Origin: a virus
Taxonomy: Duplodnaviria; Caudoviricetes
IMG/VR virus record: IMGVR_UViG_3300033434_000014
Location: 1 to 36,851 of that record
Direction: 5' to 3' (one strand)
Length of the DNA: 36,851 bases
This document shows positions 1,579 to 34,125 of this stretch, piece by piece; the stretch's first letter is position 1; every line of letters starts with the position of its first letter. A program made the translations under genes and the position numbers. The notes beneath the pieces were generated by a model. It saw only the letters and a list, made by a program, of their open reading frames with translations, was not told the DNA's origin and searched no databases.

Positions 1579-2195
1579 TCTGCACCTCTCCTTATTAGAT
1601 ACACTTTTCGTGAAACTTTGCCACACTGTAAAGCTTGTTTATGGTCGTCCATAAATACATCAATACGCTTACCTTTAATGGCTCCCCCGCGATCCTCAAC
1701 ATACCTAGTACCCACACCATCTATGTATACGATGGATCTAGGCGGCAAAACACACCAGTCTGCGGCTATTGTACGCCCCTCTACAGCCGTAGATCCTATA
1801 GCGGTAATACCATAGTCTTCGTCTCCTATATCTTTTCCGGTACTCTCTGGCCCTGCCGTGTAGAAGGTTATGGTAAAATTACCAAGAGGTACGCCACGGT
1901 GAACGCCGCCCCTGCTAGTACTCCCGTAAGAAATATCCTCAAGTGCGTATTCGGAAGGTGCTTCTTCGGGGGCGGTTGTGCTGCCTGTGGCCCCAGTGAC
2001 TGGTAATATTCCTCTAGCTGCGTCTTCAGTTGTCGGTTCTCCGCTTCCATGTCGGCAATCGTGGACCACAATTCCCTCTCCTTGTTCCGTGGTGGCTTTT
2101 TCCTTTTCGTGTAAAACTTCCCCATACAGCGCACCCCTCATTATTAATATCGATAGGATCACCAAACATAAATTACTTTTTACGTTTTTTAGCAG
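1575..2195 (-). CDS. 3D-domain (MltA-like, peptidoglycan-related) exported or membrane-anchored protein; probable CTG start (TTG 2165 is the alternative)
   Basis: C-terminal TFYT..TAIG..TIAAD..VEDRGGAIKGKRIDVF with the three Asp of 3D domains; SRGG pre-domain motif; basic plus hydrophobic N-terminus. Confidence 0.85.
   Translation of the reverse strand: MLKNVKSNLCLVILSILIMRGALYGEVLHEKEKATTEQGEGIVVHDCRHGSGEPTTEDAARGILPVTGATGSTTAPEEAPSEYALEDISYGSTSRGGVHRGVPLGNFTITFYTAGPESTGKDIGDEDYGITAIGSTAVEGRTIAADWCVLPPRSIVYIDGVGTRYVEDRGGAIKGKRIDVFMDDHKQALQCGKVSRKVYLIRRGAE
1599..1615. repeat. 17-bp dispersed palindrome, 1 mismatch
   Basis: ATACAC TTTTC GTGAAA. Confidence 0.65.
1868..2125 (-). CDS. Nested out-of-frame gene: coiled-coil protein with a C-terminal transmembrane helix
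   Basis: Own RBS GAGGGGTG 6 nt before ATG 2125; basic N-terminus, coiled coil, Pro-rich linker, TM segment IFLTGVLAGAAFTVAYLLVILP. Confidence 0.6.
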   Translation of the reverse strand: MGKFYTKRKKPPRNKERELWSTIADMEAENRQLKTQLEEYYQSLGPQAAQPPPKKHLPNTHLRIFLTGVLAGAAFTVAYLLVILP

Positions 2196-2394
2196 TACCC
2201 ATCACTTCCTTTCTCCACTTAGTAACCCACGGACTGGGTATGTCGGTTGTCTTGCATGCCATGCCACAGCTTCCTTTCTTCTCACAATGGAAGCAGCAGG
2301 CTTTAGGGTTTTTATTACTGCAGAGAACATCGTTTTCGCATTCTTGTGCTTCGTAACGAGGGCATAGCTTAAAGTTAAGTTTAGATTTAGTCAT
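2173..2394 (-). CDS. Small Cys-rich hypothetical protein
   Basis: Many Cys (CCFHC, CGMAC); AGGTGG RBS. Confidence 0.65.
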   Translation of the reverse strand: MTKSKLNFKLCPRYEAQECENDVLCSNKNPKACCFHCEKKGSCGMACKTTDIPSPWVTKWRKEVMGTAKKRKK

Positions 2395-2797
2395 TACAGC
2401 TTTTGTCCACCTTTCGAGCATTAATTAAAGCCGTAGCAACCATATTGACGCTTTCCTCAAGTCGGTGTTTTAAAGCTGTTGTGCTGAAATCCTTTAGTTC
2501 GGCAGGCAAGTATTCAATAACCTCCTCAACCAATAACTGAAAAGGATCTAGCAGCATATGGGACAATTCATGTACTAAGTCCTCTTCAAGGTAAATGGTA
2601 TCTACTAAACTGATTACAGAACCATGGTGGTGCCAATCACGCGAATTCATACCTGTACACTCCTGTCCGGCATACTTCGGGTATTTATAATCAAATTCCG
2701 CACGACTAATTACTTCTACCGTAATATCCCAGTCCATTAACCGTAAAGCTTGTTGCCATTCTTTAGCTTGCTGCTCAATAGGTTTATATACTGTCAT
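2387..2797 (-). CDS. Putative HExxH metallopeptidase-like protein
   Basis: LVHELSH motif followed by a downstream EE. Confidence 0.55.
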   Translation of the reverse strand: MTVYKPIEQQAKEWQQALRLMDWDITVEVISRAEFDYKYPKYAGQECTGMNSRDWHHHGSVISLVDTIYLEEDLVHELSHMLLDPFQLLVEEVIEYLPAELKDFSTTALKHRLEESVNMVATALINARKVDKSCND

Positions 2798-3092
2798 TCT
2801 TCTTACCCTCTTCCATGTTGCTAAGTTTGTGAGTAGACCAGTTCAGTAATGCGGATAGCGCGGCTTCCTCAGCTTGTTTTTCACAATCATAACCGTTTTT
2901 ACCTACGCGGATTTGCGCACCATGCCTAAGTTTATACATTGGAATATCTACAGCAAACCGGTCTATTGTGTCCCCGTTAGGCTCTATGTCGCACCCACAA
3001 TATAGTATTTCACCTATAACTATGTTGTTTCGAAGAACCTTGTAGTATCCTTTTCGTATTTTTTTAGCTATAAGCATAACCTCAGTCACCAC
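2784..3092 (-). CDS. Hypothetical phage protein
   Basis: Coupled ORF in operon. Confidence 0.65.
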   Translation of the reverse strand: MVTEVMLIAKKIRKGYYKVLRNNIVIGEILYCGCDIEPNGDTIDRFAVDIPMYKLRHGAQIRVGKNGYDCEKQAEEAALSALLNWSTHKLSNMEEGKKNDSI

Positions 3093-3630
3093 CCTTCCCC
3101 ATCAAAGCATCCACCATAGCGGTCTCTACAGCCGTTTCCTCATAGTCCTGATACTGGCAAGTATCTTCATCGGCACAGCAATTCAGGGCTTCTACGCCTG
3201 TGTCCATCAAAGTGGTACGTAAGGTACATTGGCATATTTCCCCTGCACCGTGAGCCTTACAGCGTTTGCAGTAGCCTGCAATAGCGAATTCCACTATTGT
3301 ATAAAAGGCGTCCTTATCAATTTTTACAGTGCTGTTTAGGTTTTCTATCGCCTTTAGTTCACGAATTGCATCATCCGTGTACTTCGTAATAACTTTGACC
3401 TTGTTGCTTTCGGCTGTGACATATGCTAGTTCTTTGGTGTCCAATGGCTGTAGCAGTTCTTCCTTAGCCTTTTTTGTCCAGGTTCCTGCTAATCTCAGAC
3501 ACTTGACTATCTCTTTACGTTGCGGATACTTAGCCATAACATCAGCAGCAGCGCGGGACCAGGCATATAGAGCGCTCATGATATAACAAGTATCCCGTTC
3601 GGCATTATTCAGATATCTTCTTACAGCCAT
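3082..3630 (-). CDS. Conserved Bacillota prophage protein (DUF5651-like) with C-terminal Cys cluster
   Basis: N-terminal RYLN..ER and C-terminal CxxC..C..C pattern recalled for this family. Confidence 0.5.
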   Translation of the reverse strand: MAVRRYLNNAERDTCYIMSALYAWSRAAADVMAKYPQRKEIVKCLRLAGTWTKKAKEELLQPLDTKELAYVTAESNKVKVITKYTDDAIRELKAIENLNSTVKIDKDAFYTIVEFAIAGYCKRCKAHGAGEICQCTLRTTLMDTGVEALNCCADEDTCQYQDYEETAVETAMVDALMGKGGD

Positions 3631-3830
3631 TTAGTCATCATCCTTTTGTAGCTATTCTCGACGTAGTCACTAGCTCTGTAGCAAGGATTCTTTACACCAG
3701 GACCGACGACTACGCCGGTCCTTTTGTCTTTACGGGATTCGTTTACAGTAAAGCCTATAATGTTATATGGTCTGCCTGTTCTTGGATTTACGTCCTGGGA
3801 TATGATTTCCGCTAGTTGTTCACTTTGCAT
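3621..3830 (-). CDS. Hypothetical phage protein
   Basis: AGGGG RBS before ATG 3830. Confidence 0.6.
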   Translation of the reverse strand: MQSEQLAEIISQDVNPRTGRPYNIIGFTVNESRKDKRTGVVVGPGVKNPCYRASDYVENSYKRMMTKWL

Positions 3831-4302
3831 TGTAATAACCCCTAACCCTATTCTTTTCGATAACCTTTTTTCGTAGGTCGCGCCGCTGCTGTTCATCTAA
3901 ACCCCGAATAGCCAGCAGGGTTTCGGCACTCATTTGAATGTCAACAATTTCCATGTTCATAGCTAAGTCGTTTTTTGCGTCGTTTTCTGCGTACTCCCCT
4001 TGCCTGTCCCACAGGCACTTATCCCATGCGAGTTCTAATTCGAGTACTTCAGACTTTAGGTGTCCGATTTGAGTGTATTCAACATTGTTTAGAAAAGCTG
4101 TAGCCGGTCTTAGGTCGGATTCTCTGCGCTCCGTCAACTCGTCCAACAATGACCTTATATCTTTTATACTAATATTGGTGACGCTTTTCTGTGGTTCAGT
4201 TACAGGCGGCGTCCAGTCTGGGCAACCAGAGTTAGGCGTTCCGTGAGATGGGCATGAATTTTCATTACAGTTTACACATGTTTCTTTAGGCATTTTGTTC
4301 AC
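3820..4302 (-). CDS. MazG-like all-alpha NTP pyrophosphohydrolase with N-terminal Cys cluster
   Basis: SEVLELE (ExxE) and EIVD (ExxD) motifs, C-terminal KN..RGYY. Confidence 0.6.
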   Translation of the reverse strand: MNKMPKETCVNCNENSCPSHGTPNSGCPDWTPPVTEPQKSVTNISIKDIRSLLDELTERRESDLRPATAFLNNVEYTQIGHLKSEVLELELAWDKCLWDRQGEYAENDAKNDLAMNMEIVDIQMSAETLLAIRGLDEQQRRDLRKKVIEKNRVRGYYNAK

Positions 4303-4864: not shown

Positions 4865-7445
4865 GCTGATCACCTCGTTTCGTTTCCAGCCATTTTTCGA
4901 GAGACATCTTTTCACCCCAACGATAACCGACTGATGCTTCAGCTATTATCGGTACAGGGAAGTCCGGGATAGGTGGCTGCTCCATTAGAGCCTTAATAAA
5001 GTTACCCGCTTTTTCCACTAATAGTGGATCATCATCCATTTCCAGTATAATTTCATCGTGAATCTGACCTACCATGTCCGTCTTACCGTGCTGTAAAATG
5101 TCGCTCTTACCTATTTCTTCGTATACAGCATTTTGACACTTCTTCATAATATCTGCAGCTCCGCCTTGGATTCTCGTATTCCCCGCTCTACGTTCGTCAG
5201 ATCCACGTAACGTGTTATTTGATGTGTTGATATTTGGCAACATTCGAATATAGCCGTAAATAGTCTGGACATAACCATTTTCCCTTGCAAAAAGGGTTGA
5301 GTCTCTTTGGTACTCAGGTATCCGTTTGTATGTCCCCATAACTGATTGAACAATATGGTCACACTCAGCTAATGTTTTACGAATACCATTTTGCGTTTTA
5401 AGGGTTTTTTGAAGCGCGTGAGGGCCTCCACCATAGTTACACCCGAAGTTGCCTGCCTTGGCATTCGTTCTCTCAGCTTTAGTTATTTCTGATTCAGGCT
5501 TGCCTGTCATCGTGGCCGCGGTCTTTCTATGAAGGTCGCCACCATGTAGAAAAGCGTCAATCATTGTTTCATCCTTAGACGCCCACGCCATTAACCGTAA
5601 TTCAAATCCGGAGAAGTCAATAAAGAATAAGATTTTACCGGAAGGTGCTTCATAGAAGTTACGAACATTGATACTTCCTATAGGATCACGGCTGACATTT
5701 TGTTGATTAGGCGATTGTGAATTAAGTCTAGAAGTTTCCGTCCACTGCGTATAACCAGCGTGGATACGCCTCGATATAGGGTTTATATACTTTTGTCTGC
5801 CTATAATGTGGCTGGAAATCAATGTTGTATATGTTTGAACTGTTTGAATTAAGTCAATAAACCGTAAAGCGGTTTCCTTATGCTCGTAGTCCGGACGCTG
5901 TTTAACTCTAACCGCGGCTCGTTCATCTTTCCCGAAATCCGGATCACTACTTACGTCCCGCGTTTCCCAATCTTCAGGAAGTTCTACAGCTAGGTATTTT
6001 TCTTCTTTAATGTCGTGTAATTTATTTTCCAGCATGAACCGCATATCAATTAGTGATTCTTCATCCAGTGAGGGTCTGTCTGTCTTATCACTGACCTTCG
6101 CTATCGGGGCACCTAAGACATCGAACAGGAAGTACTGTACACTACCCGTCTTGCCTGTCTTCCCGGTATCCAGGTCATAGTCAAACTGCTCTTTAGCAAT
6201 CTTAACCATTTCAGTGATAGCCGCGTCCCTTATGTTCTCGGCTTCTTGTCTTTTTTGCTCGGCAAGATCATCGTCCCAGGCCATACCCCAGTACTCCATC
6301 AAACCGATTACACGTGTGAAGGGCATTTCAATATTGTGTAACCAATCATCGTACATTGGTATTTGTTTAGCTATCTCACGCCAATACAGGTAATGCTGTA
6401 CTGCGTAATCAGAGTCCTCCGCGCTGTAAATGAGCGCGTCTTGGTGGTCCGCGGAAATCTCTGAGAAAAACTGCACTCCGTGTTTCTTGAGCAACTCTTC
6501 GAAGTTACCCATCTTAACCCCGAAGTACTCCCACGTCATTGGCTTGAGACCTTTGCCCGTAGCCGGACGCTTAACATCAAGGATCTTCTGCGGGGCTACC
6601 ACCTGCATACATCTTACCCACATAATCAAGGGGTCAGCAACAGGCTCCATGATGTACATACCTAGTTTAGTGGTTTGTTTGGTTTCAAAGGAAAGGTTTA
6701 CAGCTACCTTAGTTATCTTACGGTTTTGGAAGAGGTGTTTATTGAGAATTTCGAATACTTCTTTTCTGACAAGGTCGGCATAGTCACTGGGGAGCATAAA
6801 AGATGAACCACTTTTATACTCCATATTTTCTTTTATATTGTTAACATTTAATTTATACTGATTAGCACCAGGATTACCTATAAACACAACCCGCGCTTCA
6901 TGTGGAGCAGCACTTAGGGACACCGTACATATTTCTGACTTCCATGGATCAAGCGGCGCTCTTAGGAAGTCAGCACTTGCAGCTTTTTCATACGCCTTGT
7001 TCACAGCTCCAAGTTCTTTGTCGCGTTCCTTGTCGAGCTTTTTAAAAGTTGTAGACGACGTAGGGTCAAGCCTGTCTAATGTGTCCATTTCACACTGGTA
7101 TTCGTCGTTGATTCTGTCAATCTCTGACGCAAACTCACGCTCTTTTACAGCCCATATAGCACGGTACTCGTCTGTTACCGTAGTTTCATAATCGAATCCG
7201 CATATGCCTTTTTCTTCACAGCGTTTCAGGTATTTAATTAGTTCGTTTGCTGTGGTAATTACTTTGTAATCCTTTGCCTGTTGAATAGGCATCGGGGGCC
7301 AAGTGATATTAAACTCCCCTGGCTTCTTTTTAGGCTTCACAGGGGACAGCGTTTTTTGCTGTTCCCCTGTAGACTGAATTTGTACTGCCCTGCTCGCTAG
7401 AGGCTTCTTACCTCCTATAATAAATGATCCGTCTCCGAATTTCAT
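4860..7445 (-). CDS. polA: Family A DNA polymerase with 3'-5' exonuclease domain
   Basis: ExoI FDYET; motif A DFSGFELR, motif B RTNAKAGNFGCNYG, motif C IHDEI. Confidence 0.95.
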   Translation of the reverse strand: MKFGDGSFIIGGKKPLASRAVQIQSTGEQQKTLSPVKPKKKPGEFNITWPPMPIQQAKDYKVITTANELIKYLKRCEEKGICGFDYETTVTDEYRAIWAVKEREFASEIDRINDEYQCEMDTLDRLDPTSSTTFKKLDKERDKELGAVNKAYEKAASADFLRAPLDPWKSEICTVSLSAAPHEARVVFIGNPGANQYKLNVNNIKENMEYKSGSSFMLPSDYADLVRKEVFEILNKHLFQNRKITKVAVNLSFETKQTTKLGMYIMEPVADPLIMWVRCMQVVAPQKILDVKRPATGKGLKPMTWEYFGVKMGNFEELLKKHGVQFFSEISADHQDALIYSAEDSDYAVQHYLYWREIAKQIPMYDDWLHNIEMPFTRVIGLMEYWGMAWDDDLAEQKRQEAENIRDAAITEMVKIAKEQFDYDLDTGKTGKTGSVQYFLFDVLGAPIAKVSDKTDRPSLDEESLIDMRFMLENKLHDIKEEKYLAVELPEDWETRDVSSDPDFGKDERAAVRVKQRPDYEHKETALRFIDLIQTVQTYTTLISSHIIGRQKYINPISRRIHAGYTQWTETSRLNSQSPNQQNVSRDPIGSINVRNFYEAPSGKILFFIDFSGFELRLMAWASKDETMIDAFLHGGDLHRKTAATMTGKPESEITKAERTNAKAGNFGCNYGGGPHALQKTLKTQNGIRKTLAECDHIVQSVMGTYKRIPEYQRDSTLFARENGYVQTIYGYIRMLPNINTSNNTLRGSDERRAGNTRIQGGAADIMKKCQNAVYEEIGKSDILQHGKTDMVGQIHDEIILEMDDDPLLVEKAGNFIKALMEQPPIPDFPVPIIAEASVGYRWGEKMSLEKWLETKRGDQH
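5013..5029. repeat. 17-bp dispersed palindrome, 1 mismatch
   Basis: TTCCAC TAATA GTGGAT. Confidence 0.65.
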
Positions 7446-7458
7446 AGGACACCTTCTT

Positions 7459-7475
7459 TTTCACGTTTAGTGGAA
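7459..7475. repeat. 17-bp dispersed palindrome, exact
   Basis: TTTCAC GTTTA GTGGAA, beside the polA RBS. Confidence 0.8.
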
Positions 7476-8472
7476 TTGGTTATCTGATTCTGTGCTTGGC
7501 TTCATACCTGAGAGTATATGGGCTATTACGCTAACTGTCCAGCCATTACCGAGCAACTTATACCTTTGATTATCAGAGCAACTAGCTGTATACATTTCTG
7601 GTACTGTTTGAAGTCTTTCACATTCCAGTGGAGTTAGTTTGCGGATGAAGTTATTGGTTAATATCCCATGTTTATCCTGAGCGGTTAACGTATAAAATTT
7701 ACTGTGTGGTGGTTTAAATCTTCTTCCGTTTTGTTTTTTGCTTAACCTATCTGGTGTTAAACACGGTAATGCATACAGCCCCGTTTTAGCTCCAAGACCA
7801 CAGGCATCCCCACACAAGGTTACAGACTTATCGTGTATGCTGTATATCCGATTACCCTGGTTGTCTGAGCCTATATAAGCTATTTTTCTTCGCTTAACTT
7901 CGTTTTCTAGAATAACAACTAGTCTGTTAGGGTTGATAAGGTACTTAGCGTCTACAGTATCTTCGAGTACGTCCTCAACCGTTTCTGGACATTTGGTCCA
8001 CTCTTTTTCAAAAGGGATATTTGTCCAATACCATCTTACACGGTCTTGAGCAGAAAAGTCAGCAGAGTTTATTTTTATGGGTTCAACTTTCATGTGCTCT
8101 GTAATAATGTTTAGGTACTCTTTTTTCATGTTAACATTTTCAAGCAAAAAATACTTTGGCTGTAGTTCTTCTTTTACTCTTATGTAGTCAAAAAAACAGC
8201 CTACTCCTTGGATCGGAAAAGTTTAGTTGTTTACCCGCGAAACTAAACCCTTGACAGGGGCTACCACCCATCAATAAGTCAATTTCTGGTAACGTACTGA
8301 GGTCTATACTAGTCACGCCCCCTAGTTGCTTGGTTTCAGGAAAGTTATTTATTGTAACTTGAATTGCGTACTTATCAATTTCGCTTGCAAAATAGTTGCT
8401 CACGTGTATCCCAGCTCTTCGCAGTGCTAGCTGACCACCGCTCATACCATCGAATAGTGATAAGACATTCAT
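7467..8472 (-). pseudogene. C5-cytosine DNA methyltransferase split by a +1 frameshift in a T7 run (8190-8196)
   Basis: 5' ORF has SLFDG and GGSPCQGFS; 3' ORF has ENV, Q.R.R, RKLTPLECERLQ and LGNGW; removing one T restores LFFDYIRVKEELQPKYFLLENV. Confidence 0.9.
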
Positions 8473-9868: not shown

Positions 9869-12800
9869 TCATCCTCGTCATCATCGATATTATCAAACAA
9901 TCCAAGCTCGAAGCACTTAGCAATGTATCCGTTAAACTTAGAAGTCTTTCGAAATCCTCCGCTAGTGTTCTCAATCATCCTGAGCTTTGTTAGAGCTGCT
10001 ACTATAGCCTTTGCCTCTTCCTTGTCGATAGAGAGCATAGCCTCTACGTCCCCCAGCCTTAAGTACCGCTGTTGTGCAAAGAGCTTAACAAATTCGAAGA
10101 ACTTTCCGTCACTTTTAATTGTGTCAACTTTCTTCAAGCCGTTGGTAATCTTCGCATACTTTTCATCGTCAATCTCCGTTTCCTTGATAGCGAGTTTAGC
10201 GAAGTAGTTTAAACCACAGCCAGGAGCATTGTATATGCCTTTGAGATACCCGAGCAAGAATTCCGCGTGTACCGACTTAACTACCACTATTTCGCCAGTT
10301 TCATCCACGCTATGCAGCAAAGCCGCCAAAGCTGTAGATAACCGGCACATCTTGTTTCTTTGATCAGAAGGACTAACTAACGGGGTGTCGTTTGCTCTTC
10401 CATAAGTTTTCGACAATTCATTAGAGACATCAAGAATGGTTTTGATTGCACCGGGAGCGAACTGCACTTGTGTAGGCGTACGTGACCACGCGAACAGCAC
10501 ATTATTTTTCAGTAATTCGGAACTAATAGACTGCGGGTAGATGGGCAATTCCTGGTTGTATTTGTCTGGGTCAACATCTGCAGCTCTCATGAAGATACCG
10601 AAGTCAAAACGCCGGATATCTTCATTGTTGAATATGTCTTTTAGGGATTCTACACCGTGGCCGTAACTAGAAAGACGTTTTACGGAACCACTACTTGCGA
10701 CATTACCACTGAGGATAGCCCTAACCCTGCAAGGCGTTTCGGCAGTTACAGCTCTTTTGACTTCTAGGCGTCCGTCTGAGCGCGCCAGCGTCATTTCTCC
10801 ATACTGTTCTTTAGTGATACCTGTATCTTCGTCAATCCAAATCATTTCGCCGTCTGACAGAGGCCAAGCTCCCCAAACGATATACCAAGCACCCTGGCCG
10901 CTCCCCTGTTCCATTCGGTAGGTAAGCCCTGTACGGCTGGCAGATTCTGCATTAACCCTTGTTCCTAAGCCTGTGTACTTAAGTATGTGGCTGACCATTT
11001 CGCTTTTGCCCGTAGCTGTATCACCTACGATCTTAAGTTCCACCCACCCACGTATTGGATCGGTACTCCACGGTACACTAAAGCGTAAGATACTATGCTG
11101 TACCAGAAGTACGCCTAGCAGGGTTTCGTCTCTTTCCACGATTCGTGTAACATTGTAGGTAAGATCAGCGCAAATCTGAGCCAACTTGACTTCAATACCC
11201 GCCGCCGTCTCGTCTGCAGGCTGGAAGAATTTCAATGATTCTCCAATTTCCGGTGTAAGTTTAAAGCTTTCTACAATATCTTGCAGTGGTTTAGCTGACT
11301 TAATAACGATTGTCCCCTCTTGATTCTTTGGGTGGGGAAATACGTATCCCGTAAGCTCGTAGTACTTATTCTCGCTTATCTGCATGCCACCTACGGAATA
11401 TATCTTTCGTAGTACATACCTGCCGTCAGCGTTTAAGTCACCGGATACCCCTGTTTCCGCCATTGGAATAACCAGTAGTTCTTCTACGTTGGTAGTTTCC
11501 AACACTTCGTATTTGTACTTAGTGCAGCTAGGTGTACCCGACATACCTTTAATTATAGTTTTAAGATCATTGTCATGCGCGCCGGCCATTTGAATCAGTT
11601 CCCGGTTATTCTGACCTAAGTCGTGGTAAACTTCCGGCACATCAAACAGAGGACAGTGAACTTTCTTGCAGGTAGATCGTCCGTAACAGTGAAATTCGAT
11701 ACGCCGGGGAACAATATACGGGGTCTGCTTACGTCCGGCTATCATTACTCTTGTCTTTACCAGCTTGCCTGTGTAGTCCGCATTTGCTGTCCCATCAAGG
11801 TGCATGACAGTCGCTTCTGCTTCATCTTGTTCTATCCCGGCTTTCGTACACGAACAATGAATACCGGAACACGCAACACGATCATACTCGGAATTCCCCG
11901 GAACCTTTGGCCCATGGAGGCTGCGAATAAAGGCACAACCAAAACGGCATTCAGCGTTGTATACTGAGTCGAGCGCGCTACGGGTATTCGCTACACGTGC
12001 CTGCTTCTGATAATTCCCGGACGCCGTGGTATACTTTAGTACCCACGGTTCCAAGAGAGCGAGGGCCTCGGCTTTTGTATAACCTGCGTCCTTCATATAA
12101 CAAGCAAGCTGTAAGGTAGCCGGGTTACGATCTCCATCTTTCTTCCAGCCATTTTCAAGGATATCCTTAACGCATATAGGCGGGTTCTCTTTGTTGAACT
12201 TGTAAACGTCTTTAGAGTACCGCGCACCCGCTGTAGCCAGCATTTGTTGGTATTCTACTAACTTATCCTGGTAGAAATGAGCCGCCGCCTTGCGCGTTCC
12301 TTGTGCTGTTTCCCGTACATCTTCAGCTATTATGGGCTGTAAACGCGGAGTTTTAGCTAGTACTTTAATACCGTCAAGGGAAAGAGTTTTTAGTTCTTCG
12401 ATACTGATTTCAATTTTAAACAGCCTTGTTGTTTGGTGTACGGAATTCGGAATTCGTAGCATACGAGGCATTGTGTATACAATAGGGTCTATAGTCGCCA
12501 TTTCCAGCCTGTGTGTTAGGTAGCCGGATATATGCTTAAATACTTTTGTCAAGTCGTTGCGTGGTTGAATATTAAAGGCTACGTGGTTTATAAGAATATG
12601 GAACCCTTTACTACCTGAGAAATACACGTGTATATCCGTAGGCTGTATGTCGAGTTCCGAAGTAAAAAAGTCGATTATCTTAACTGAATCTACTTGAGCG
12701 ATAGCGGGATCTTCCGCACAATCAAGGTCGAAGTAAAGAGGGGACAAACACTGTTCCCCCTTGATTCTTTTAGAATTGGCAAATCTTTGTACAGTAGCAT

Positions 12801-16141: not shown

Positions 16142-16855
16142 TTATTCTTGGATTCCGAATTCTGCAGGGATGAACAGACCAACCGGTTCAAATTTAATAC
16201 CAACATAGCTATCTGTGCTACCTTTAACATCCCGCACTTCAGAAATCAGACGAGTGATTACCGTGTTAGCCCCTGAACCTTTAGGGATTTTATGGGTAGT
16301 TTTATAATGACCATTAAACACATTTCGTGTAAATGTACCCCAGCCGTAGCTATCGCCAGGTGCATAGCTAATTAGGTAGATAGGTGGTACATCTTCCGCG
16401 TTAATATCTTCAGCGAACACGATATAGGCGAGGTAACGCAGTTTAACATTGTCAAGATTATACCGTTCCTTAGCTTCCGGATTTTGGTCTAACCAGGCTG
16501 TAAGTGCCGCTTCAGCATCTTCCCGGTTACGTTCAGCAACAATCAACTCACCTTTTTCCGGAGATTTGTCAGCCCCCCATACCATGTAGCGCTGCTCACC
16601 TTTGCCAATAACGACGTCAATACTATCCCCAAAGGATACAGTTTCATCACTGGAAAGAACAAAGTTACCCTTTCTGTTGATTTTAACCCAGTCACCCATA
16701 CGGACGTAGTCAAGTTCGAGTCCCTCATTTACAGCTAGGAAGTTGGTCATTGTTGATTCGAGGATTTGGGTAATGTAACCTTTTTTGTGTACCTCTGCTG
16801 GAAGGTTTTTTTCTACTACTGCTACCGCCGCTTCTTTGTTTTCTTTGTTTTCCAT
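16142..16855 (-). CDS. Hypothetical replication-module protein, possibly ssDNA-binding
   Basis: Acidic, aromatic and beta-rich; position near primase/helicase; function is inference only. Confidence 0.5.
   Translation of the reverse strand: MENKENKEAAVAVVEKNLPAEVHKKGYITQILESTMTNFLAVNEGLELDYVRMGDWVKINRKGNFVLSSDETVSFGDSIDVVIGKGEQRYMVWGADKSPEKGELIVAERNREDAEAALTAWLDQNPEAKERYNLDNVKLRYLAYIVFAEDINAEDVPPIYLISYAPGDSYGWGTFTRNVFNGHYKTTHKIPKGSGANTVITRLISEVRDVKGSTDSYVGIKFEPVGLFIPAEFGIQE
16316..16332. repeat. 17-bp dispersed palindrome, 2 mismatches
   Basis: AAACAC ATTTC GTGTAA. Confidence 0.5.
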
Positions 16856-18403: not shown

Positions 18404-18420
18404 TTTCACTTTTCGTGTAA
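18404..18420. repeat. 17-bp dispersed palindrome, exact
   Basis: TTTCAC TTTTC GTGTAA, within a 24-bp identity to 27966-27989. Confidence 0.85.
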
Positions 18421-19158: not shown

Positions 19159-21933
19159 TCAATCCCACTTCATTCCATCAAGGAACGCTTCAATATCATC
19201 CTTGTTGGTTCTCGGTTTCTTAGGAACTGTAAGCCCCAACCTCTGGTATACTTTCCTCCGGCTGTAATACTGCGATTTAAACACCCCGACATTCGCGTCC
19301 ACTATATCGATCCACAGCGCTTTCTTCTCTGGGTTACGGGGGTCTGGCCGCTGTATTCGCCCGATGGTTTGCTCTACCCCTATACCGTTCTTCGCGCTTC
19401 CTGTATCGCCTCTTTGTGGTATTGCTAGAAGTCCTACACAAAGGTTAGGTAAGTCTAAGCCCTCTTTAGCAATACTGGAAGCTATTAGAATATCAAGTTT
19501 TCCAGCGCGGGACTCTTCCATTACTTGTTTCCGATATAGTGGAGTGCATTGCCAGCTTCGCATTTCACTTTCCGTGTAATTCTCAACCTTGATTTCCCAC
19601 CGTTTAGCTTTAGCATTAAACCTGTAGGCTACCGCTTTACCTTGCTGCATAAGTTCTTGGGCTGCAAACTCGCTACGAGCTACGCGCCACGAACACTGGC
19701 TTATAGGGCCGTGAACTACTGCTGTACGAATTCCTTTAAAACCCCGCTCGGCGGCTCTCTCAAGAATTAAGCCGTGTAACTTGTGGGCATACTTAATGCT
19801 CTCACTTACTACGATAGTAAAGCCCTGCTTTAAATTATTCAACGTGGTGTCTGCAATTAGTATAGCACGGTCATCATCTACGATCAAATGCTGTATAAGG
19901 TCGTGATAGTCCAATTCTTCGCCACCAGCGTCCACAGACGTCCCATTCCTCACTGATGCTGGCTCATAGTCGAAATCGCTATAAACGAATTTTATCTCCG
20001 GTTTAATTAATCGTCCCGACTCGTATAGGCCGTCTCTCGTGATTCGGTATACCTCAGGCCCTATTGCGCGATACATGTACTCTTGCAGCATATCCTTACG
20101 CTCTGGTGTGGCTGTAAGTCCCATTATTCTGCGTGCTTTAAACTTATTTAGCACTTCGATAAACGTGGTACTTGGCGTGTGGTGGCAATTATGCGTTAAG
20201 ATCCCGTTAGCAATAAAAGTATGGTCTGTGGTGGTAAAATCGTAAACTGCGGTGCCATGTAGCGGCGATACCTTCTTTATAGCCGTTAATCTATAAGGTA
20301 ATCCTTTATAGGTAATTTCACGATCAGTGTAAAATGTCCTCTGTTTAGAGAATCTGGCTAGTGTTTTACGGGAGTTACCTAAATTACCAATATTCTCTAT
20401 AAAATTAATTAAATCCTGACCACGTATTGTTATTCGGTGAACATCATTGTGGCCCTTAAGCTTATCAGCAGGTTTCTTAGACAGTGTACGGGCGTGTACC
20501 CCAAACTTCATAAGTAATTGTCTCATCTGTTCTAGGAAAGCGTATGCAGTCATGTCAAGAATCAAGCGTTGGCAACCGTTTTTTTCTGTAACTACAGCCC
20601 CCTCTGCGGCGAATACCGTGGTGATAAACCCCCGCAGGGCGTCTGACGGCGCCGTAAAAACCGTATCAGTAATTACTAGCTTATAGGCTTTCTTGCCCGC
20701 AGGGATAGCAAATGTCACCATTAACGTAGTTATTATCTCTTTGTTTGCAGACCATAAAGTTAAATCGCCCCGACAATTAATTGATTCTTTATAACTACTA
20801 CCGTATCCAAAAGCCGTCAACCCCGCCTTAAACACTCTTCTATAGTAGTCTAAATCTGTTCTTACAGCAACTTTCACCCTGGAGAGATTTTTCTCAATAT
20901 GCCCATCGGTGCAAATTAACGCCACGAAAGCCAGTTGTTCGGGCGTCCATTCACTCTTTTCTACGTGTGGTGTACTTAGAGGCAGCAGCAAGTAGTCCCC
21001 TTCGGTCAGGTCTTTTGTCTGTATTGCTTGAACACAGTCACCATCGGGAGGCACATACCCCCCTTTAGAATACGTCTTGAACTCTTTTTTATACACAATA
21101 TGCTTATGTGTATCGGTACAGTTAAGTTTTCCGTTTTGTGTAACTACTTCGTAAACAAGTCCAGTACGTTGGAATTTGTTGCTCACTACCCCACCCACGA
21201 CTAAATCACCATTCATTACGTCGGCTATTGGTTTAGCTGTGCCGTCTGCTAGCGTAATTAGCGTGTCACCGGCAAGACACTCGTCAACTACAACGTTCCC
21301 TATCAAGGGATCAAGTGCCTCGATAAGTTCTGGACGTTGACTTAAAGTCTGGGCCATCGCCACAATTAGCTTACCATCCCCGTAATCCACAACACCGTCA
21401 GCAATTCTACCAACACGCCCGATATCACCTGAAACTGCCTGAGCTTTAGCTATAGTTTGCTCCAAAAGGTCTTTCGTGTGAGTAAGCCATATTGTAGGTT
21501 TCCCTGTATCGTGTACATACTTAAGACCCATTACTGTCTTACCACTACCTGCGGGGGCTATCAAAACCCCGTTCTGCTGCATCATTGCAGCTACTGCGGG
21601 CAACTGGTCGTCCTTAAGGCTGTAAGCGGTATTCCATTCCCCGAAGTCTACAGCTTTTGTGTCGTTGTATTGTTCAAGAATTATGTCAAGTGGGATGTTC
21701 TGCTGCTGCATAATGTTTTTAAGGTCTTTTAAGAACCCTCTAGGACATACGATATCCGAACCTTCCAGCCTGTATAGTTTTAACTTCTTTTCAATGCCCC
21801 AAACCTTTTGGCGTTTCTTTTGCTTTTCAATGTATACCGGGTTGTCGATTTCCAGGGCTTTGGTTATTGCAGACCGGAGGGGAACCGTAGCCCCTCTGAT
21901 CCATATTTGATTTGATATAGTGATCTGTAGCAA
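19159..21933 (-). CDS. SF2 DExH helicase precursor containing an intein
   Basis: PAGSGKT, DE|CHH split by the intein, GLTATPER, EGLDLP, QTIGRIQR. Confidence 0.92.
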   Translation of the reverse strand: MLQITISNQIWIRGATVPLRSAITKALEIDNPVYIEKQKKRQKVWGIEKKLKLYRLEGSDIVCPRGFLKDLKNIMQQQNIPLDIILEQYNDTKAVDFGEWNTAYSLKDDQLPAVAAMMQQNGVLIAPAGSGKTVMGLKYVHDTGKPTIWLTHTKDLLEQTIAKAQAVSGDIGRVGRIADGVVDYGDGKLIVAMAQTLSQRPELIEALDPLIGNVVVDECLAGDTLITLADGTAKPIADVMNGDLVVGGVVSNKFQRTGLVYEVVTQNGKLNCTDTHKHIVYKKEFKTYSKGGYVPPDGDCVQAIQTKDLTEGDYLLLPLSTPHVEKSEWTPEQLAFVALICTDGHIEKNLSRVKVAVRTDLDYYRRVFKAGLTAFGYGSSYKESINCRGDLTLWSANKEIITTLMVTFAIPAGKKAYKLVITDTVFTAPSDALRGFITTVFAAEGAVVTEKNGCQRLILDMTAYAFLEQMRQLLMKFGVHARTLSKKPADKLKGHNDVHRITIRGQDLINFIENIGNLGNSRKTLARFSKQRTFYTDREITYKGLPYRLTAIKKVSPLHGTAVYDFTTTDHTFIANGILTHNCHHTPSTTFIEVLNKFKARRIMGLTATPERKDMLQEYMYRAIGPEVYRITRDGLYESGRLIKPEIKFVYSDFDYEPASVRNGTSVDAGGEELDYHDLIQHLIVDDDRAILIADTTLNNLKQGFTIVVSESIKYAHKLHGLILERAAERGFKGIRTAVVHGPISQCSWRVARSEFAAQELMQQGKAVAYRFNAKAKRWEIKVENYTESEMRSWQCTPLYRKQVMEESRAGKLDILIASSIAKEGLDLPNLCVGLLAIPQRGDTGSAKNGIGVEQTIGRIQRPDPRNPEKKALWIDIVDANVGVFKSQYYSRRKVYQRLGLTVPKKPRTNKDDIEAFLDGMKWD
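19563..19579. repeat. 17-bp dispersed palindrome, exact
   Basis: TTTCAC TTTCC GTGTAA. Confidence 0.8.
20188..21279 (-). mobile_element. Intein (364 aa) with LAGLIDADG homing endonuclease, inserted in Walker B
   Basis: Begins CLAGDT, block B CTDTHKH, LAGLIDADG-like FVALICTDG and FITTVFAAEG, ends ANGILTHN before Cys+1. Confidence 0.93.
20316..20332. repeat. 17-bp dispersed palindrome, exact (inside the intein)
   Basis: TTTCAC GATCA GTGTAA. Confidence 0.75.
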
Positions 21934-22661: not shown

Positions 22662-23153
22662 TTATTTGCAGTAATCAACCACAGGCTGTAAATAATATGT
22701 CCTCTTTTCAGCTTCCATTAAAGGTATTTCCACGAATTGTGTAAATAGAGAACCGAAGTCACCTAGCTTTATATGATTCTTACCTTCTCGCTTCATAAAC
22801 CGTAGCGCGTCAACCAGTCTAAAAACAAGCGTCCTATCTGTATCTGCGTTTAAGAAGGATACAAACACCAGCCCCTTGTTGTGCTGTAGAACGCATTCGA
22901 AATCGAGTAATCCACGAATCTGCGGAGGACGTAGGAAACTTAGTTCGAACTTGTCTCCCGCTGTTCGCTTGTGTTCAGCTAAGATATTACAGCTCTTTAA
23001 GAGCACTACTTCATCTGCCGGCCTGGTCCCGGCTCCGGCATCAGTAATCCGGAGCCTCCAACTGTTTGGGACTAGCGCCCACGATCTACGCATTTCATCT
23101 TGGAAATCCTCGCCTCTGTCCCGGCGTTCCTTTTGCTTATTCGTGTTCGCCAA
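22662..23153 (-). CDS. RecU-like Holliday junction resolvase (PD-(D/E)xK)
   Basis: [22 protein letters not shown] motifs; TTG 23153 after GGGGA. Confidence 0.7.
22728..22744. repeat. 17-bp dispersed palindrome, exact
   Basis: TTCCAC GAATT GTGTAA. Confidence 0.8.
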
Positions 23154-25383: not shown

Positions 25384-25968
25384 TTATTTCTTATAAAAGT
25401 ATGTGGCCGCCATGTCCGAAAGGTGTAAAGCAGATACCAACGGATACATATCCATTGCTGTACCCATCGACGCGCTACCAGAAAAACCGCCACGAGCCGC
25501 ATCGTCGAAACCACCCATATGAAACCTAATAGCCAAGGCTTCTTCATCCGATAAGGCTACAAAACGCTGTAAAAGTATTATACTTTTTTCTCCATGACCT
25601 GCCGGGAACTTATCATCTACAGAGTAGTAAGGAACTTTCTCCCACTGACCAGTTTTTTCGTTTTTAGCATTGCGGGTAGACACAGTATAATAGTTAGCTT
25701 TACACAAATCGTGTAATAAGGCTGTAATTTTCATTGATTCTAGACCAAAATTAAGCTGAAAAGCTTCGTTTATCTTTAACAGGGCGTCGTATACGGCCAA
25801 GCTGTGAATAAGTAGACCACCTGTTACAGCTCCATGGTGACGGGTACTAGCCGGGGCAGTGTAGAAATCAGTAGTATCTATCCACTGTAACAGCTCTGGT
25901 ATTCCGGGGCGCTTAACCTCATTCAGTAAGCTAATAAATACGTTTTTCAAATTATCAAGTCCTCTCAT
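25384..25968 (-). CDS. HD-domain phosphohydrolase (start ATG 25968 or TTG 25950)
   Basis: FYTAPAST.HH, HSL.V, LLHDLCK, GHGEKS, RFHMG, LHLSD. Confidence 0.88.
   Translation of the reverse strand: MRGLDNLKNVFISLLNEVKRPGIPELLQWIDTTDFYTAPASTRHHGAVTGGLLIHSLAVYDALLKINEAFQLNFGLESMKITALLHDLCKANYYTVSTRNAKNEKTGQWEKVPYYSVDDKFPAGHGEKSIILLQRFVALSDEEALAIRFHMGGFDDAARGGFSGSASMGTAMDMYPLVSALHLSDMAATYFYKK
25700..25716. repeat. 17-bp dispersed palindrome, exact
   Basis: TTACAC AAATC GTGTAA. Confidence 0.85.
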
Positions 25969-27967: not shown

Positions 27968-27984
27968 TTTCACTTTTCGTGTAA
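27968..27984. repeat. 17-bp dispersed palindrome, exact
   Basis: TTTCAC TTTTC GTGTAA, intergenic, next to an RBS. Confidence 0.85.
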
Positions 27985-28336: not shown

Positions 28337-28351
28337 TTGATCACGCCTTTC

Positions 28352-28612: not shown

Positions 28613-28625
28613 GTTTAACCCCTCC

Positions 28626-29484: not shown

Positions 29485-29487
29485 TTA

Positions 29488-29724: not shown

Positions 29725-29739
29725 TTACATATCCCCTTT

Positions 29740-30009: not shown

Positions 30010-31564
30010 TGCAAATTTCCTCCCCTATCATCTGCCCGCAAGTAGGGCATACGTCAATTTCTTTCCACATTTCGTGTAGCTCTTTTTTAGCAGTAGCTAA
30101 CGAATCACTATGTACCGTCAACCGTGAACTAGCTACAATTGCTTCTGCATTACGGGCTTTATACTCTTCTTGCAGCTTCTTAAAAACCATAAGTGTACTC
30201 TGTTTTACGCTCATGGTTTTTAAGGCCTCTGCTGCCTGACTTAGCCCCGCTGTAGTACTTACGGTATCCGAACACTGCTTCATTCGTGTACAGGCTACGT
30301 TGTACTGCGCTCTCATAATTCTAAACTGCTGTAAGCGTTCCAACATAACTTCTGACTTTTTAAGAGTTTCGATTACACTATGGTCAACCGCTGTAGACTC
30401 AATTAGAGCCTTATAGCGCGCCACACCCTGAGCTGAGGAAGTATGTGTCCCCACTAAGTTTTGAAGTAACTGTGACCGTGTTATGGCGGCCTCTGTATGA
30501 GCTAACCTGTCTATCGCTTTTGGTAGGTTGATTGTACTGTTTATTACAGCTTTGTTGATATCAATTTCCTGGGAGCCGAATCTATGAAGACCGGCAAGCT
30601 TTTTGATTGTTACCAGTTTCTCATTGTTGACAACTACCTGACTAAGCGTACTTTTAATAGAAGGAAGAAGCGAGTACCGCCCTATTTCGTTTACCAAATT
30701 CGTACGCTGTAAACAGTTATCGGTAAACCTACACAATAAGTTTTTCCAGTTACTGAGTTTTGTAGAGCAATCGTCTACAGCTTTTAATGACTCTTGCAGC
30801 TTCTTAACATTGCGGAACCGTAGCACGAATTCCGTGTACCCGCTGACCTTAGCCGCTAAACTACTGTAAGTATCCCGTAATTCTGCTACCACTTTATACT
30901 TTACTGACTTAGCGTCCACACGTTCAAGCAAAACGCCACATACATGTAACTGCTCAACCTGCTGGGGAAGATCGTAGAACTGCGCTAATGCTGCTTCGGT
31001 TTTCTCAATATCTTTTATAGACTGTAACCGCTGCTGATTTGCCGCATAGTTGTCTTTAGCTACAGCTTTGATAGCCATATCAACTACTTCAGTACCCGAC
31101 AGCTTGCCAAGAACTTTAGCCCCTGCGGATGACGGTTCACTTAATAGAAAAGGAGCGGCTAATTGATAAGCAAAGTTTAGCTCTGTCTCAAAGTCACCGA
31201 ACTGCGTTTTTACTATTCCGAGAGCTTTGATAATTTCCTCAGGCGTTTCGGCTTTGTCAAAAACCATGGGATCTTCACCGGGGTTTTCCAACGTATAGGA
31301 TGTCTTAGCGCCTTTACGCTGCTTCGTAACTACTGTCCCGGTAGTTAAGTGGATACTAACTTTAGTCTGTCCTATGGCTTTATTGACAAATGAGTCACCT
31401 GCCGGCTCTCCAAATACTACCCACCGGATAGCGCGAATAATAGCTGTCTTGCCCGAGTCACTTGGGCCTGTAATAACTGTTAGTCCAGGGCTTACACTAA
31501 TGGTGGAATCTACGTGAGACTGAAACCCTGTTAATTGAATTTCGTTAATCGTTGAATTATTCAC
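30002..31564 (-). CDS. N-terminal half of a split SbcC/Rad50-like ABC ATPase ending in a zinc hook
   Basis: FQSH, Walker A GPSDSGKT, Q-loop AYQ, long coiled coil, terminal CPTCGQ. Confidence 0.88.
   Translation of the reverse strand: MNNSTINEIQLTGFQSHVDSTISVSPGLTVITGPSDSGKTAIIRAIRWVVFGEPAGDSFVNKAIGQTKVSIHLTTGTVVTKQRKGAKTSYTLENPGEDPMVFDKAETPEEIIKALGIVKTQFGDFETELNFAYQLAAPFLLSEPSSAGAKVLGKLSGTEVVDMAIKAVAKDNYAANQQRLQSIKDIEKTEAALAQFYDLPQQVEQLHVCGVLLERVDAKSVKYKVVAELRDTYSSLAAKVSGYTEFVLRFRNVKKLQESLKAVDDCSTKLSNWKNLLCRFTDNCLQRTNLVNEIGRYSLLPSIKSTLSQVVVNNEKLVTIKKLAGLHRFGSQEIDINKAVINSTINLPKAIDRLAHTEAAITRSQLLQNLVGTHTSSAQGVARYKALIESTAVDHSVIETLKKSEVMLERLQQFRIMRAQYNVACTRMKQCSDTVSTTAGLSQAAEALKTMSVKQSTLMVFKKLQEEYKARNAEAIVASSRLTVHSDSLATAKKELHEMWKEIDVCPTCGQMIGEEICNG
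30063..30079. repeat. 17-bp dispersed palindrome, 1 mismatch
   Basis: TTCCAC ATTTC GTGTAG. Confidence 0.7.
31492..31508. repeat. 17-bp dispersed palindrome, exact
   Basis: TTACAC TAATG GTGGAA. Confidence 0.8.
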
Positions 31565-32693: not shown

Positions 32694-32697
32694 ACGC

Positions 32698-33102
32698 TTA
32701 TCTCTGTATATGTGCTGCAGCGTCTAAGGAATAGCCCAGCGTGTTAACTACCTGCGCTAATTGCGTAGGTGTAATGTCACGGGGTATCTGCTGTAGCCAC
32801 CCACTAGGTTTACCAATAACCGTGTTTAGTGTATCGGGATCAGTACCTGTTTTAATACAGTCAGCTAATGCACTTACAATTACCCGCTGCTCAGGTGTGA
32901 GATACTTACCAACCCCATAAAAGTCCCGTATCGGAATGCGCATCACGTCAGCTACAGCTTTTAAGTCCACCGCCGATATGTCGTTTCGGCCACTTTCGAT
33001 ATTTGACAACCAGCCTGTAGAACGGCCTAACTGCTTGTTCACATGCGTGGCTCGAATGCCGTGGGCTTTTCGGATTTCTTTGATTCGTGCTCCTATTGAC
33101 AT
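32698..33102 (-). CDS. XRE-family regulator with two tandem HTH-like repeats
   Basis: IGARIKEIRK..LGRSTGWLSNIESG and a second IGKPSGWLQQI..DITPTQL repeat. Confidence 0.8.
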   Translation of the reverse strand: MSIGARIKEIRKAHGIRATHVNKQLGRSTGWLSNIESGRNDISAVDLKAVADVMRIPIRDFYGVGKYLTPEQRVIVSALADCIKTGTDPDTLNTVIGKPSGWLQQIPRDITPTQLAQVVNTLGYSLDAAAHIQR

Positions 33103-33113
33103 TTTTTCTCCCC

Positions 33114-33166
33114 CTAAAAATAATTTACGCAGCGTGAAACATTTTAAACGTTTTGTGGTATAATAG
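33114..33166 (+). promoter_or_regulatory. Extended -10 promoter (TGGTATAAT; -10 at 33159-33164) with two degenerate 17-bp sites (33123-33139, 33144-33160); copy A of a duplicated block
   Basis: Manual alignment to 34074-34125 gives 43/52 identities plus one gap. Confidence 0.65.
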
Positions 33167-33211
33167 GTTTAATGATTTGATTTAAGAGGCTTGTTGGCCT
33201 TTAGCAATCAT

Positions 33212-33427
33212 TTACACTTCTTTCCTGTTAATTTCACTTTCTTCTAGCAATGTTTCAGCCGGTATACCGAAGAACTTAACTAACCGTTGCTGTAAATCCC
33301 ATCCTGGATTGTGTCTACAGATGATTATGTGACTAATCATCTGCCGACTAACGTCTGTTGCAGCGGCCACAGCGGCTTGAGTTAAACCGCGCCGAGTTAT
33401 TTCGTCCTCTAAGAATTGCCTTTTCAT
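33212..33427 (-). CDS. Cro-like XRE HTH protein
   Basis: RRGLTQAAVA..VSRQMISHI..NPG; GGAGGGGGTG RBS before ATG 33427. Confidence 0.85.
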   Translation of the reverse strand: MKRQFLEDEITRRGLTQAAVAAATDVSRQMISHIIICRHNPGWDLQQRLVKFFGIPAETLLEESEINRKEV

Positions 33428-33447
33428 TTCACCCCCTCCTTTCAATC

Positions 33448-33503
33448 AGCAAGCACCACTTGCTTCGTAGTCTTAGTATAAGGCAAGCATTGCTTGCCGT
33501 CAA
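33448..33503 (-). promoter_or_regulatory. Leftward sigma-A promoter TTGACG-17-TATACT with two 17-bp GCAAG-N5-CTTGC operators (33448-33464, 33482-33498)
   Basis: -35 at 33498-33503, -10 at 33475-33480; perfect palindrome GGCAAGCATTGCTTGCC in the spacer. Confidence 0.8.
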
Positions 33504-33513
33504 GAGGTGTTTT

Positions 33514-33741
33514 ATGTTTAATAAAAAACTTTTTTCTGACCGTATTAACCTACTAATTAATGCCAATAAAGTAACGCATCAAGCATTAGCAGATAGTGTT
33601 GGGATTAAGCGTCAGGCTGTAGGGCAATTTACAAATGGTAATAACCTACCATCTATCGAAACCCTTACAGCTTTGGCCTGCTTCTTCAACGTTAGCGTCG
33701 ACTACTTACTCGGCTTGTCCGATAAGCCGGAAAGGAGGTAA
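33514..33741 (+). CDS. XRE HTH repressor-like protein (75 aa)
   Basis: GAGGTG RBS before ATG 33514; THQALADSVGIKRQAV..PSIETL..FNVSVDYLLG. Confidence 0.88.
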   Translation: MFNKKLFSDRINLLINANKVTHQALADSVGIKRQAVGQFTNGNNLPSIETLTALACFFNVSVDYLLGLSDKPERR

Positions 33742-33748
33742 CGCAATA

Positions 33749-34063
33749 ATGAAAAACTTGCTGACTACTACACGTAATGCAGCGGCTGGTTTAGGGCGCT
33801 CGGTCGGTATTATTACGTACTTTTCTTTTGGGTTAATAGGCGCCGCAATACATCTTTGGACTATTTCATTAGCTTGGTATCACCTTGGGATTTTATCAGC
33901 CGTAGCAGCTCTTTGCCTCCCAGTAGTAGCACAAATAGCTATGTTCATATACTTATTAGTTGGCTTCAAAAGCTTTATCCTGTTCCACTACGTTATCATA
34001 ACGTTCCTGATAAGTTGGTTACTATTTATCACCTTAGTTAACAGGGTGCTAGACAAGGATTAA
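33749..34063 (+). CDS. Small multi-pass membrane protein (candidate superinfection exclusion)
   Basis: GGAGG RBS before ATG 33749; about three hydrophobic segments; co-oriented with the repressor. Confidence 0.7.
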   Translation: MKNLLTTTRNAAAGLGRSVGIITYFSFGLIGAAIHLWTISLAWYHLGILSAVAALCLPVVAQIAMFIYLLVGFKSFILFHYVIITFLISWLLFITLVNRVLDKD

Positions 34064-34073
34064 CAATTATTGA

Positions 34074-34125
34074 CTAAAATATTTTACGCACGGTGTAATA
34101 TAATACACGATTTGTGGTATAATAG
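34074..34125 (+). promoter_or_regulatory. Extended -10 promoter (-10 at 34118-34123) with two 17-bp sites (34082-34098, 34103-34119); copy B of the duplicated block
   Basis: TGTGGTATAAT just upstream of the HTH gene; sites TTTTAC-N5-GTGTAA and ATACAC-N5-GTGGTA. Confidence 0.75.

Follow-up and report, generated by a model that had tools for sequence, protein, structure and literature searches.

The early arm of an integrated prophage, contained in the 36,851-nucleotide stretch of the IMG/VR record IMGVR_UViG_3300033434_000014 (Duplodnaviria; Caudoviricetes) that we analysed here in full as "the window", carries a 17-bp palindrome that is densely dispersed and lies mostly within genes for DNA replication. 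Our analysis confirmed that this motif is real. It is very probably read by a protein of the phage's own lysogeny switch, and the copies far from that switch (distal sites) may be operators at which the switch repressor brakes transcription of the early arm, a reading to which we give a little less than an even chance. The window comprises the early arm and the control end of the prophage, whilst the virion arm lies outside it. Among its gene products are a PolA-like polymerase, an AEP primase-MCM helicase and a helicase that bears an intein, SbcC- and SbcD-like proteins and methyltransferases, together with two sigma factors, five small helix-turn-helix (HTH) proteins (71, 75, 110, 116 and 134 aa) and a tyrosine integrase, whose gene lies beside an intact tRNA-Lys. 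Coordinates of the sites and of the control region are given in Table 1.

The symmetric consensus of the motif is TTACACG-AWT-CGTGTAA, with two arms of seven bases around a centre of three (7-3-7). The original prediction, made from the sequence alone, listed nine exact copies of TTHCAC-N5-GTGDAA, and all nine are found where it placed them, whereas spacers of N2-N4 and N6-N9 gave no exact match in the window. In an unbiased dyad scan, which covered all one-wildcard hexamer dyads (4 wildcard positions and 16 spacers), TTnCAC-N5 ranked first with 9 copies seen against 0.046 expected (-log10 p of 17.6, before allowing for about 65,000 tests), bearing out the very large excess that had been claimed. 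Moreover, synonymous-codon shuffles that kept every protein contained a mean of 1.0 and a maximum of 3 copies (300 runs). The centre is AT-rich, as predicted, with A or T at 25 of the 27 central positions. Four further copies with one mismatch (1599, 5013, 30063 and 34082) are correctly positioned, but as a class they are not clearly in excess, given 0-5 such copies at other spacers and 4.35 in the codon null. Iterating the matrix led to 14 distal sites, with 0-1 in the spacer controls; a weaker site proposed at 14658 scored no better than background (8.2 bits). The sites had also been described as a regular lattice. This was not established: gaps between exact copies range from 0.75 to 7.3 kb and the evenness of spacing gave p = 0.16, 0.08 and 0.02 for 9, 12 and 14 sites, which is only suggestive.

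Eleven of the 14 distal sites fall inside open reading frames (ORFs), two lie on stop codons and one is intergenic, counting the site at 31492 as intragenic (SbcC) by homology. For the nine exact copies the figures are six, two and one, and the claim that the motif is mostly intragenic thus holds for six of these nine. Intragenic sites occupy all three reading frames and therefore no protein motif explains them, in agreement with the prediction; they lie up to 1.3 kb from a gene end. There is a modest enrichment near the ends of genes, with 7/12 window sites within 75 nt of a stop codon against a background of 26% (p 0.017). The better half-site is upstream at nine sites, downstream at three and tied at two, where the background strand bias is 65:40. 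A sense-strand sigma-A promoter score of at least 9 was found at 1/14 distal sites (background 5.7%), and no -10-like or other shared flank was found at any fixed offset around 12 window sites. Therefore, the distal sites are not ordinary promoter operators, although promoters served by the phage's own sigma factors retain a small probability. The exact site at 20316 falls in a LAGLIDADG intein of the helicase (19159-21933) that is absent from aligned relatives. Because no homologue aligns at the intein, this site most likely arose after the intein arrived.

The data support a phage-specific motif rather than a host one, as had been predicted. Each of 401 genomes from the inferred host class contains the pattern 0-7 times, a frequency like that of a reversed control, compared to nine times in the 37 kb of the window. 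Applied to 3.15 Mb of other loci, the window matrix gave 3 matches scoring at least 16 bits. When viral contigs were scanned with the pattern, 117 stretches were returned, and among the 80 listed almost all matches were single and at chance level. Only one locus among those 80, L048, matches the window pattern twice (433-449 and 301-317), at a distance of 132 bp.

At the control end, the motif recurs in a duplicated promoter/operator block of about 59 bp. In each copy a rightward extended -10 promoter is covered by a pair of weak sites spaced 21 bp apart, an arrangement that the original prediction had described. The promoter of copy 2 precedes the gene for a 110-aa XRE-family protein (XRE-110), which holds the CI position, and copy 1, beside which there is a second rightward promoter-like match (33096-33124), adjoins the start of a leftward gene for a 134-aa HTH protein (HTH-134) in the Cro position. 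A matrix trained on sites 34082 and 34103 alone placed the 12 strongest dispersed sites at ranks 1-15 of 32,599 positions, so that the proposed tie to the control region holds; these two seeds had been spotted through the motif, and the result is a test of motif identity rather than an independent discovery. Distal sites are nearer the consensus than the switch sites of the window.

The recognition helices of XRE-110 and HTH-134 share S-N-x-E, in contrast to the R-Q shared by a second pair of HTH proteins encoded between them. Together with the comparison of relatives given below, this supports the two proteins that had been named as candidate readers. HTH-134 does not have the tandem HTH ascribed to it: one HTH domain is significant and the second is not. 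It is 35% identical to the Cro of a relative (L176). A fold search for the candidate readers returned only XRE-type rows, none at E <= 0.001. The reader is most likely XRE-110, and its Cro-like partner HTH-134 may share the same operators.

The second pair belongs to a second cro/cI switch that, with a gene for a 104-aa membrane protein, lies between the two block copies (33116-34133), so that three divergent HTH pairs, whose palindromes differ, are stacked here. In the simplest history HTH-134 and XRE-110 would be the original divergent pair, into which the second was inserted. A strong leftward promoter here reads into the early arm and holds two 17-bp GGCAAGC-type operators (33448 and 33482), the second switch's own. 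This operator type has no dispersed set in the window; one weak copy occurs at 34394, inside the XRE-110 gene.

The primase of the window is 60-62% identical to those of the Bacillus phages phBC6A51 and vB_BboS-125, and we compared the window with phBC6A51-like phages. None of the examined relatives carries the window's motif. They show the same layout of switch and distal copies built on different palindromes of their own, with at least seven half-site sequences. In a blind test, palindrome pairs were picked from 18 switch intervals of 17 relatives. With one of the two top pairs, distal copies were clearly recovered in 11 (G798, G811, L176, G804, G801, G794, G810, G799, phBC6A51, L021 and L172), making 12 loci with L003, and partially in G805 and G812. 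Seeds fixed by hand recovered 1-10 distal copies of the phage's own switch palindrome in 14/15 relative loci (spacer controls 0-2), a count in which one of the G812 seeds had been wrongly placed and the L216 seeds came from a cluster where no HTH pair was detected. In most relatives, distal copies are nearer the consensus than most switch copies. The first is usually found at the 3′ end of cro, and further ones turn up repeatedly behind the genes for helicase, primase and polymerase; in addition, an operator copy lies in or beside the lytic-promoter spacer. Distal sites of the relatives are mostly intergenic, those of L176 (6/6) and L216 (4/7) being intragenic as in the window. Three alignable L176 sites are absent from relatives 73-82% identical in DNA, at one site through synonymous changes only, and one of these relatives, G797, which is close to L176 but has no detected HTH switch, lacks the L176 sites. 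The motif therefore follows each phage's own switch, which points to the phage's own repressor or Cro as its reader. On this comparison, the window appears to be an unusually dense version of a layout present in related phages.

Some dyad matches from the blind search were left out of the family tally: those in G817/L020 and L002/L004/L005 resemble hairpins of the terminator type, and base composition seems to account for those in G797, G800 and G806. Two other arrangements were observed. G793 has four intergenic copies of a composite element (L245:16546 and 17796; L246:2769 and 7422), in which a 17-bp dyad is followed, 5 bp on, by TGTACAAA; this is unmatched to the phage's own switch and possibly marks promoters of the phage's SigH-like factor. 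A distant phage with 28% primase identity (L216:811-20670) carries at least 10 copies of a different 7-3-7 dyad, several of them intragenic, and no HTH gene was detected in the 23 kb examined.

In the relatives, 18/57 distal sites are accompanied on the transcribed strand by four or more consecutive T ending 16-17.5 bp before the centre of the operator, compared to 2/57 on the antisense strand and 1.7% in AT-rich background. This distance holds whatever the width or sequence of the operator. Eleven of the 18 T-runs lie outside any ORF, in four lineages, and most have no stable adjoining hairpin; the p value for these non-coding runs is about 4e-10 if sites are independent and about 0.01 counting four lineages. 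Each such strand-specific cassette consists of an A-run and 4-7 T placed at this distance from the phage's own operator, which suggests a candidate repressor-dependent terminator. A similar distance from the operator centre applies to RNA polymerase that Lac repressor has halted, a figure that a literature search did not confirm. It is possible, if doubtful, that the family as a whole constitutes a palindromic stoperator system, in which a CI-type repressor would stall polymerase over a hairpin-less U-tract 17 bp upstream and thereby form terminators of exchangeable specificity. The window prophage would extend such a system to a dozen sites within the coding sequence of replication genes, one of them in an intein.

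Roadblock or looping remains the leading function for the distal sites. If a phage switch protein is the reader, we regard braking of transcription as evenly balanced against other functions. A dimer of XRE-110 would occupy the weaker pair on its own promoter only once the strong distal sites are filled, and this late filling would be autoregulation that sets the level of XRE-110. Dimers bound at the 14 promoter-less copies would stall RNA polymerase, and such braking would limit leaky read-through into the nuclease, helicase, primase and polymerase genes. In relatives, the stalled polymerase might be released over the U-tract at its fixed distance, giving a repressor-dependent terminator. In the window phage, which has no U-tract, release would likely depend on a host factor such as Mfd, and the many sites could offset weak individual blocks. 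Intragenic roadblocks by phage proteins (10.64898/2026.02.23.707548) and Mfd-dependent roadblock termination (PMC10310618) are both documented.

Several points weigh against repressor braking and its assignment to XRE-110. Lambda CI, Cro and 186 CI are poor roadblocks (10.1101/2021.10.29.466366, PMC5001618, PMC10310618), and the stoperators of Cluster A mycobacteriophages depend on orientation rather than on a simple steric block (PMC9283540). None of the 14 distal sites of the window has a T-run at the distance seen in relatives, and braking in the window prophage is therefore an extrapolation; moreover, at the 3′ end of cro, Phe codons account for 7/18 of the relatives' T-runs. In the XRE interval of the window itself, the blind palindrome picker did not find the correct register, and it failed in G808, G793 and G806; the relatives are also not independent of each other. 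All four control-region sites overlap rightward repressor-gene promoters, with none on the strong lytic promoter at 33503-33475, a placement that fits a Cro-type reader equally. Lastly, unusual residues are not significantly enriched at the sites (15/42 vs 873/3328, p 0.11, range 0.10-0.50). We had considered amino-acid sculpting by the sites, as helicase S789 occurs in 0/50 homologues and SbcC V24 in 0/34, and rejected it on this overall result.

The main rival, because distal sites are nearer the consensus than promoter sites, is that the same repressor uses them as high-affinity sinks, giving a threshold that tracks copy number, or as loop anchors that tighten the switch, with polymerase not being stopped locally. 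We consider this a tenable but rather unlikely explanation. The difference in consensus match extends to most relatives, intragenic position is irrelevant to a sink, and the window sites lack a U-tract. Furthermore, lambda and 186 CI loop or wrap and do not roadblock, and the CI of TP901-1 has a third palindromic operator, OD (PMC11149083). A sink does not, however, need a strand-specific T-run at a fixed distance, and the recurrence of the relatives' promoter-less sites at matching points of the early operon, together with the enrichment near stop codons in the window, also speaks against it.

Reading by the Cro-like HTH-134 in lytic growth, which would shut the repressor-gene promoters and later damp the replication genes, seems to us improbable. 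It would suit the control sites, which overlap the rightward promoters for XRE-110 and, antisense through cro, for the 75-aa CI, and the closest similarity of HTH-134 is to the Cro of L176, a phage with an operator (TTAACGG) that resembles the window motif. However, the copy in or beside the lytic-promoter spacer of relatives implies a CI role. As established for lambda, a single set of operators usually serves both the CI and the Cro of a switch, so that a Cro reader would not exclude XRE-110.

We give little credence to the distal sites being ordinary operators on unseen internal promoters, served by the phage's two sigma factors (9254-9868 and 31557-32693, one with a long C-terminal extension) or running antisense, with the T-run of relatives as a promoter element. 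Several distal sites in G801, G804 and G805 do overlap good sigma-A matches, in the manner of the promoter-region sites of MrpR in SPbeta (PMC10516654), and the T-run reads antisense as an A-rich -10-like stretch in several relatives. The window sites speak against this, given their distance from gene ends, their position in ORFs and the lack of a shared flank around 12 of them. Very improbable indeed is a self-mark against the SbcCD-like nuclease, a parS-like site or a host-protein site, the first two of which had been raised in the original prediction: SbcC- and SbcD-like genes are present and the half-sites resemble those of parS, but there is no ParB-family match among the 65 window ORFs (the virion arm being outside), the dyad is spaced, unlike the contiguous 16-bp palindrome of parS, with no exact match at N2-N4, its density in the 401 class genomes is at background, and in relatives that also have these nuclease genes such sites are few, different or lacking, the motifs of those relatives matching their own switch and G797 lacking sites along with a detected switch.

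Operators of lambda CI and Cro are 17 bp long, and many dispersed repressor sites, intergenic or promoter-associated, are known in the C1 operators of P1 and the conserved inverted repeats of phiC31, the latter not confirmed in our literature search. As in CI/Cro operator sets, dyads in the window lie on promoters at a divergent HTH switch and the motif is phage-specific and changes with the switch; as with stoperators, many promoter-less sites run along the lytic operons. In Cluster A phages (L5, TipsytheTRex) one repressor likewise reads sites genome-wide, with and without promoters, for which an elongation stop has been proposed (PMC9283540). However, the Cluster A stoperator is a 13-bp, asymmetric, oriented and mostly intergenic element, whereas the window has 17-bp dyads, 11/14 in ORFs, with weak orientation bias; its reader is a monomer of 183 aa with an HTH and a Stoperator domain, unlike the XRE candidates of 110 and 134 aa (PMC9283540). 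Cluster O mycobacteriophages carry a 17-bp repeat that is also 7-3-7 with an A/T-rich centre, dispersed, intragenic in about a third of its copies, absent from the host and mostly off promoters. It differs in sequence (TGTTCGG-N3-CCGAACA), in its invariant arms and 34 copies, and in that these phages are not obviously temperate, whereas the window motif is tied to a lysogeny switch in an integrase-bearing prophage (PMC4351075).

SPbeta of Bacillus subtilis is also a Bacillota prophage, with a master repressor, MrpR, bound to an element (SPBRE) repeated at about ten places, but MrpR has a recombinase fold and its sites are in promoter regions, in contrast to the XRE-type candidates and promoter-less, mostly intragenic sites of the window (PMC10516654). 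TP901-1 has an XRE/CI dimer and palindromic operators (OL, OR and OD), a pair at the divergent switch and one extra compared to the 14 of the window (PMC11149083). A literature search of partial coverage gave no description of operators in phBC6A51-like phages, nor of a set of palindromic, mostly intragenic sites in Bacillota phages. The original prediction had named no palindromic version in Bacillota prophages; for phages of another host, palindromic dispersed 17-bp repeats are described in Cluster O (PMC4351075).

Table 1. Palindromic sites, control-region features and integration genes of the window, and non-coding T-run cassettes of relatives
Feature	Location	Strand	Context	Score
Distal site, one mismatch	1599..1615		in 3D-domain gene, 24 nt before stop	19.5 bits
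Distal site, one mismatch	5013..5029		in PolA-like DNA polymerase gene	19.6 bits
Distal site, weaker	5201..5217		in DNA polymerase gene; not listed in the original prediction	17.2 bits after iteration
Distal site, exact	7459..7475		overlaps stop codon just ahead of DNA polymerase gene	
Distal site, exact, best consensus match	11134..11150		inside AEP primase-MCM helicase gene	
Distal site, weaker	16316..16332		inside conserved 237-aa gene	16.7 bits
Distal site, exact	18404..18420		over DNA methyltransferase stop codon, adjoining next ribosome-binding site	
Distal site, exact	19563..19579		inside superfamily-2 helicase gene, C-terminal part	
Distal site, exact	20316..20332		in helicase-gene intein, aa 534-539 (intein domain 256-582)	
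Distal site, exact	22728..22744		inside Holliday-junction resolvase gene	
Distal site, exact	25700..25716		on HD-motif codons of HD-domain gene	
Distal site, exact	27968..27984		intergenic, adjoining ribosome-binding site	
Distal site, one mismatch	30063..30079		inside SbcC-like gene, 61 nt before stop	
Distal site, exact	31492..31508		inside SbcC-like gene, 56 nt after start	
HTH-134, candidate reader	32698..33102	-	134-aa XRE-family HTH, Cro position; first gene ahead of sigma factor and SbcC	
Duplicated block, copy 1	33116..33174	+	weak sites 33123-33139 and 33144-33160; extended -10 33156-33164	
Cro-like HTH of second switch	33212..33427	-	71 aa	
Strong leftward promoter	33448..33503	-	33503-33475, TTGACG-17-TATACT	
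CI-like HTH of second switch	33514..33741	+	75 aa	
Duplicated block, copy 2	34075..34133	+	sites 34082-34098 and 34103-34119; extended -10 34115-34123	
XRE-110, candidate reader	34147..34479	+	110-aa XRE-family HTH, CI position	
Tyrosine integrase	35430..36599	+		
tRNA-Lys(CTT), intact	36730..36805	-	integration junction	
T-run cassettes, G804	L262:11774, 15771; L263:13919; L264:13434		non-coding	
T-run cassettes, G805	L266:1880; L267:5183		non-coding	
T-run cassettes, G801	L252:9777, 13756		non-coding	
T-run cassette, G794	L249:11905		non-coding	
T-run cassette, G810	L274:14085		non-coding	
T-run cassette, G799	L281:1590		non-coding	

The host of the prophage is probably a Negativicutes bacterium (Bacillota), since the integrase is 70% identical to a Propionispora protein and, in a 401-genome sample of the phylum, four of the genomes that matched the tRNA best carry LpxC. 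Where the window is compared with the attachment region of L240, an integrase relative, identity stops in the middle of the tRNA, and the tRNA-Lys is therefore the host junction. No close relative of the window was found: primase relatives are 57-65% identical, a primase profile had no match in the 401 class genomes or in 15 family genomes, XRE-110 had one match at 43% without a locus, and the four window proteins looked up were singletons. In a quick tree the branch leading to the window was long and no sister was well supported. The integrase relatives L240 and L241 are other phage types without the window motif; integrase, excisionase and a divergent HTH are common to them and the window.

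We also observed a leftward promoter of perfect consensus for the excisionase operon (34950-34922, within 34872-34950), directed head-on into the XRE-110 gene. Between the integrase and the tRNA (36648-36675), CGTGTAA, which is the best half-site, occurs twice as a direct repeat 10 bp apart. This pair is absent from L240, whose integrase is 79% identical, and TGACAAC repeats nearby are shared with L240 and look like arm-type sites. Elsewhere, a cytosine methyltransferase-like gene is split over two ORFs of 226 and 94 aa (7467-8472), the SbcD-like ORF at 26161-26988 seems to lack its first part, and an acyl carrier protein gene lies at 23137-23385.

Dispersed phage operators are already known in principle. 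The puzzle is why some temperate phages scatter repressor sites far from promoters when textbook CI proteins are poor roadblocks. This family offers a testable set: its repressors are small XRE proteins, its operators have at least seven sequences, several lineages keep the U-tract at a fixed distance from the operator, and one intragenic extreme has no U-tract. If braking by the repressor is true, these phages would hold a compact, orthogonal set of protein-dependent terminators, and this would help to explain why such phages may not escape immunity through mutation of a single operator.

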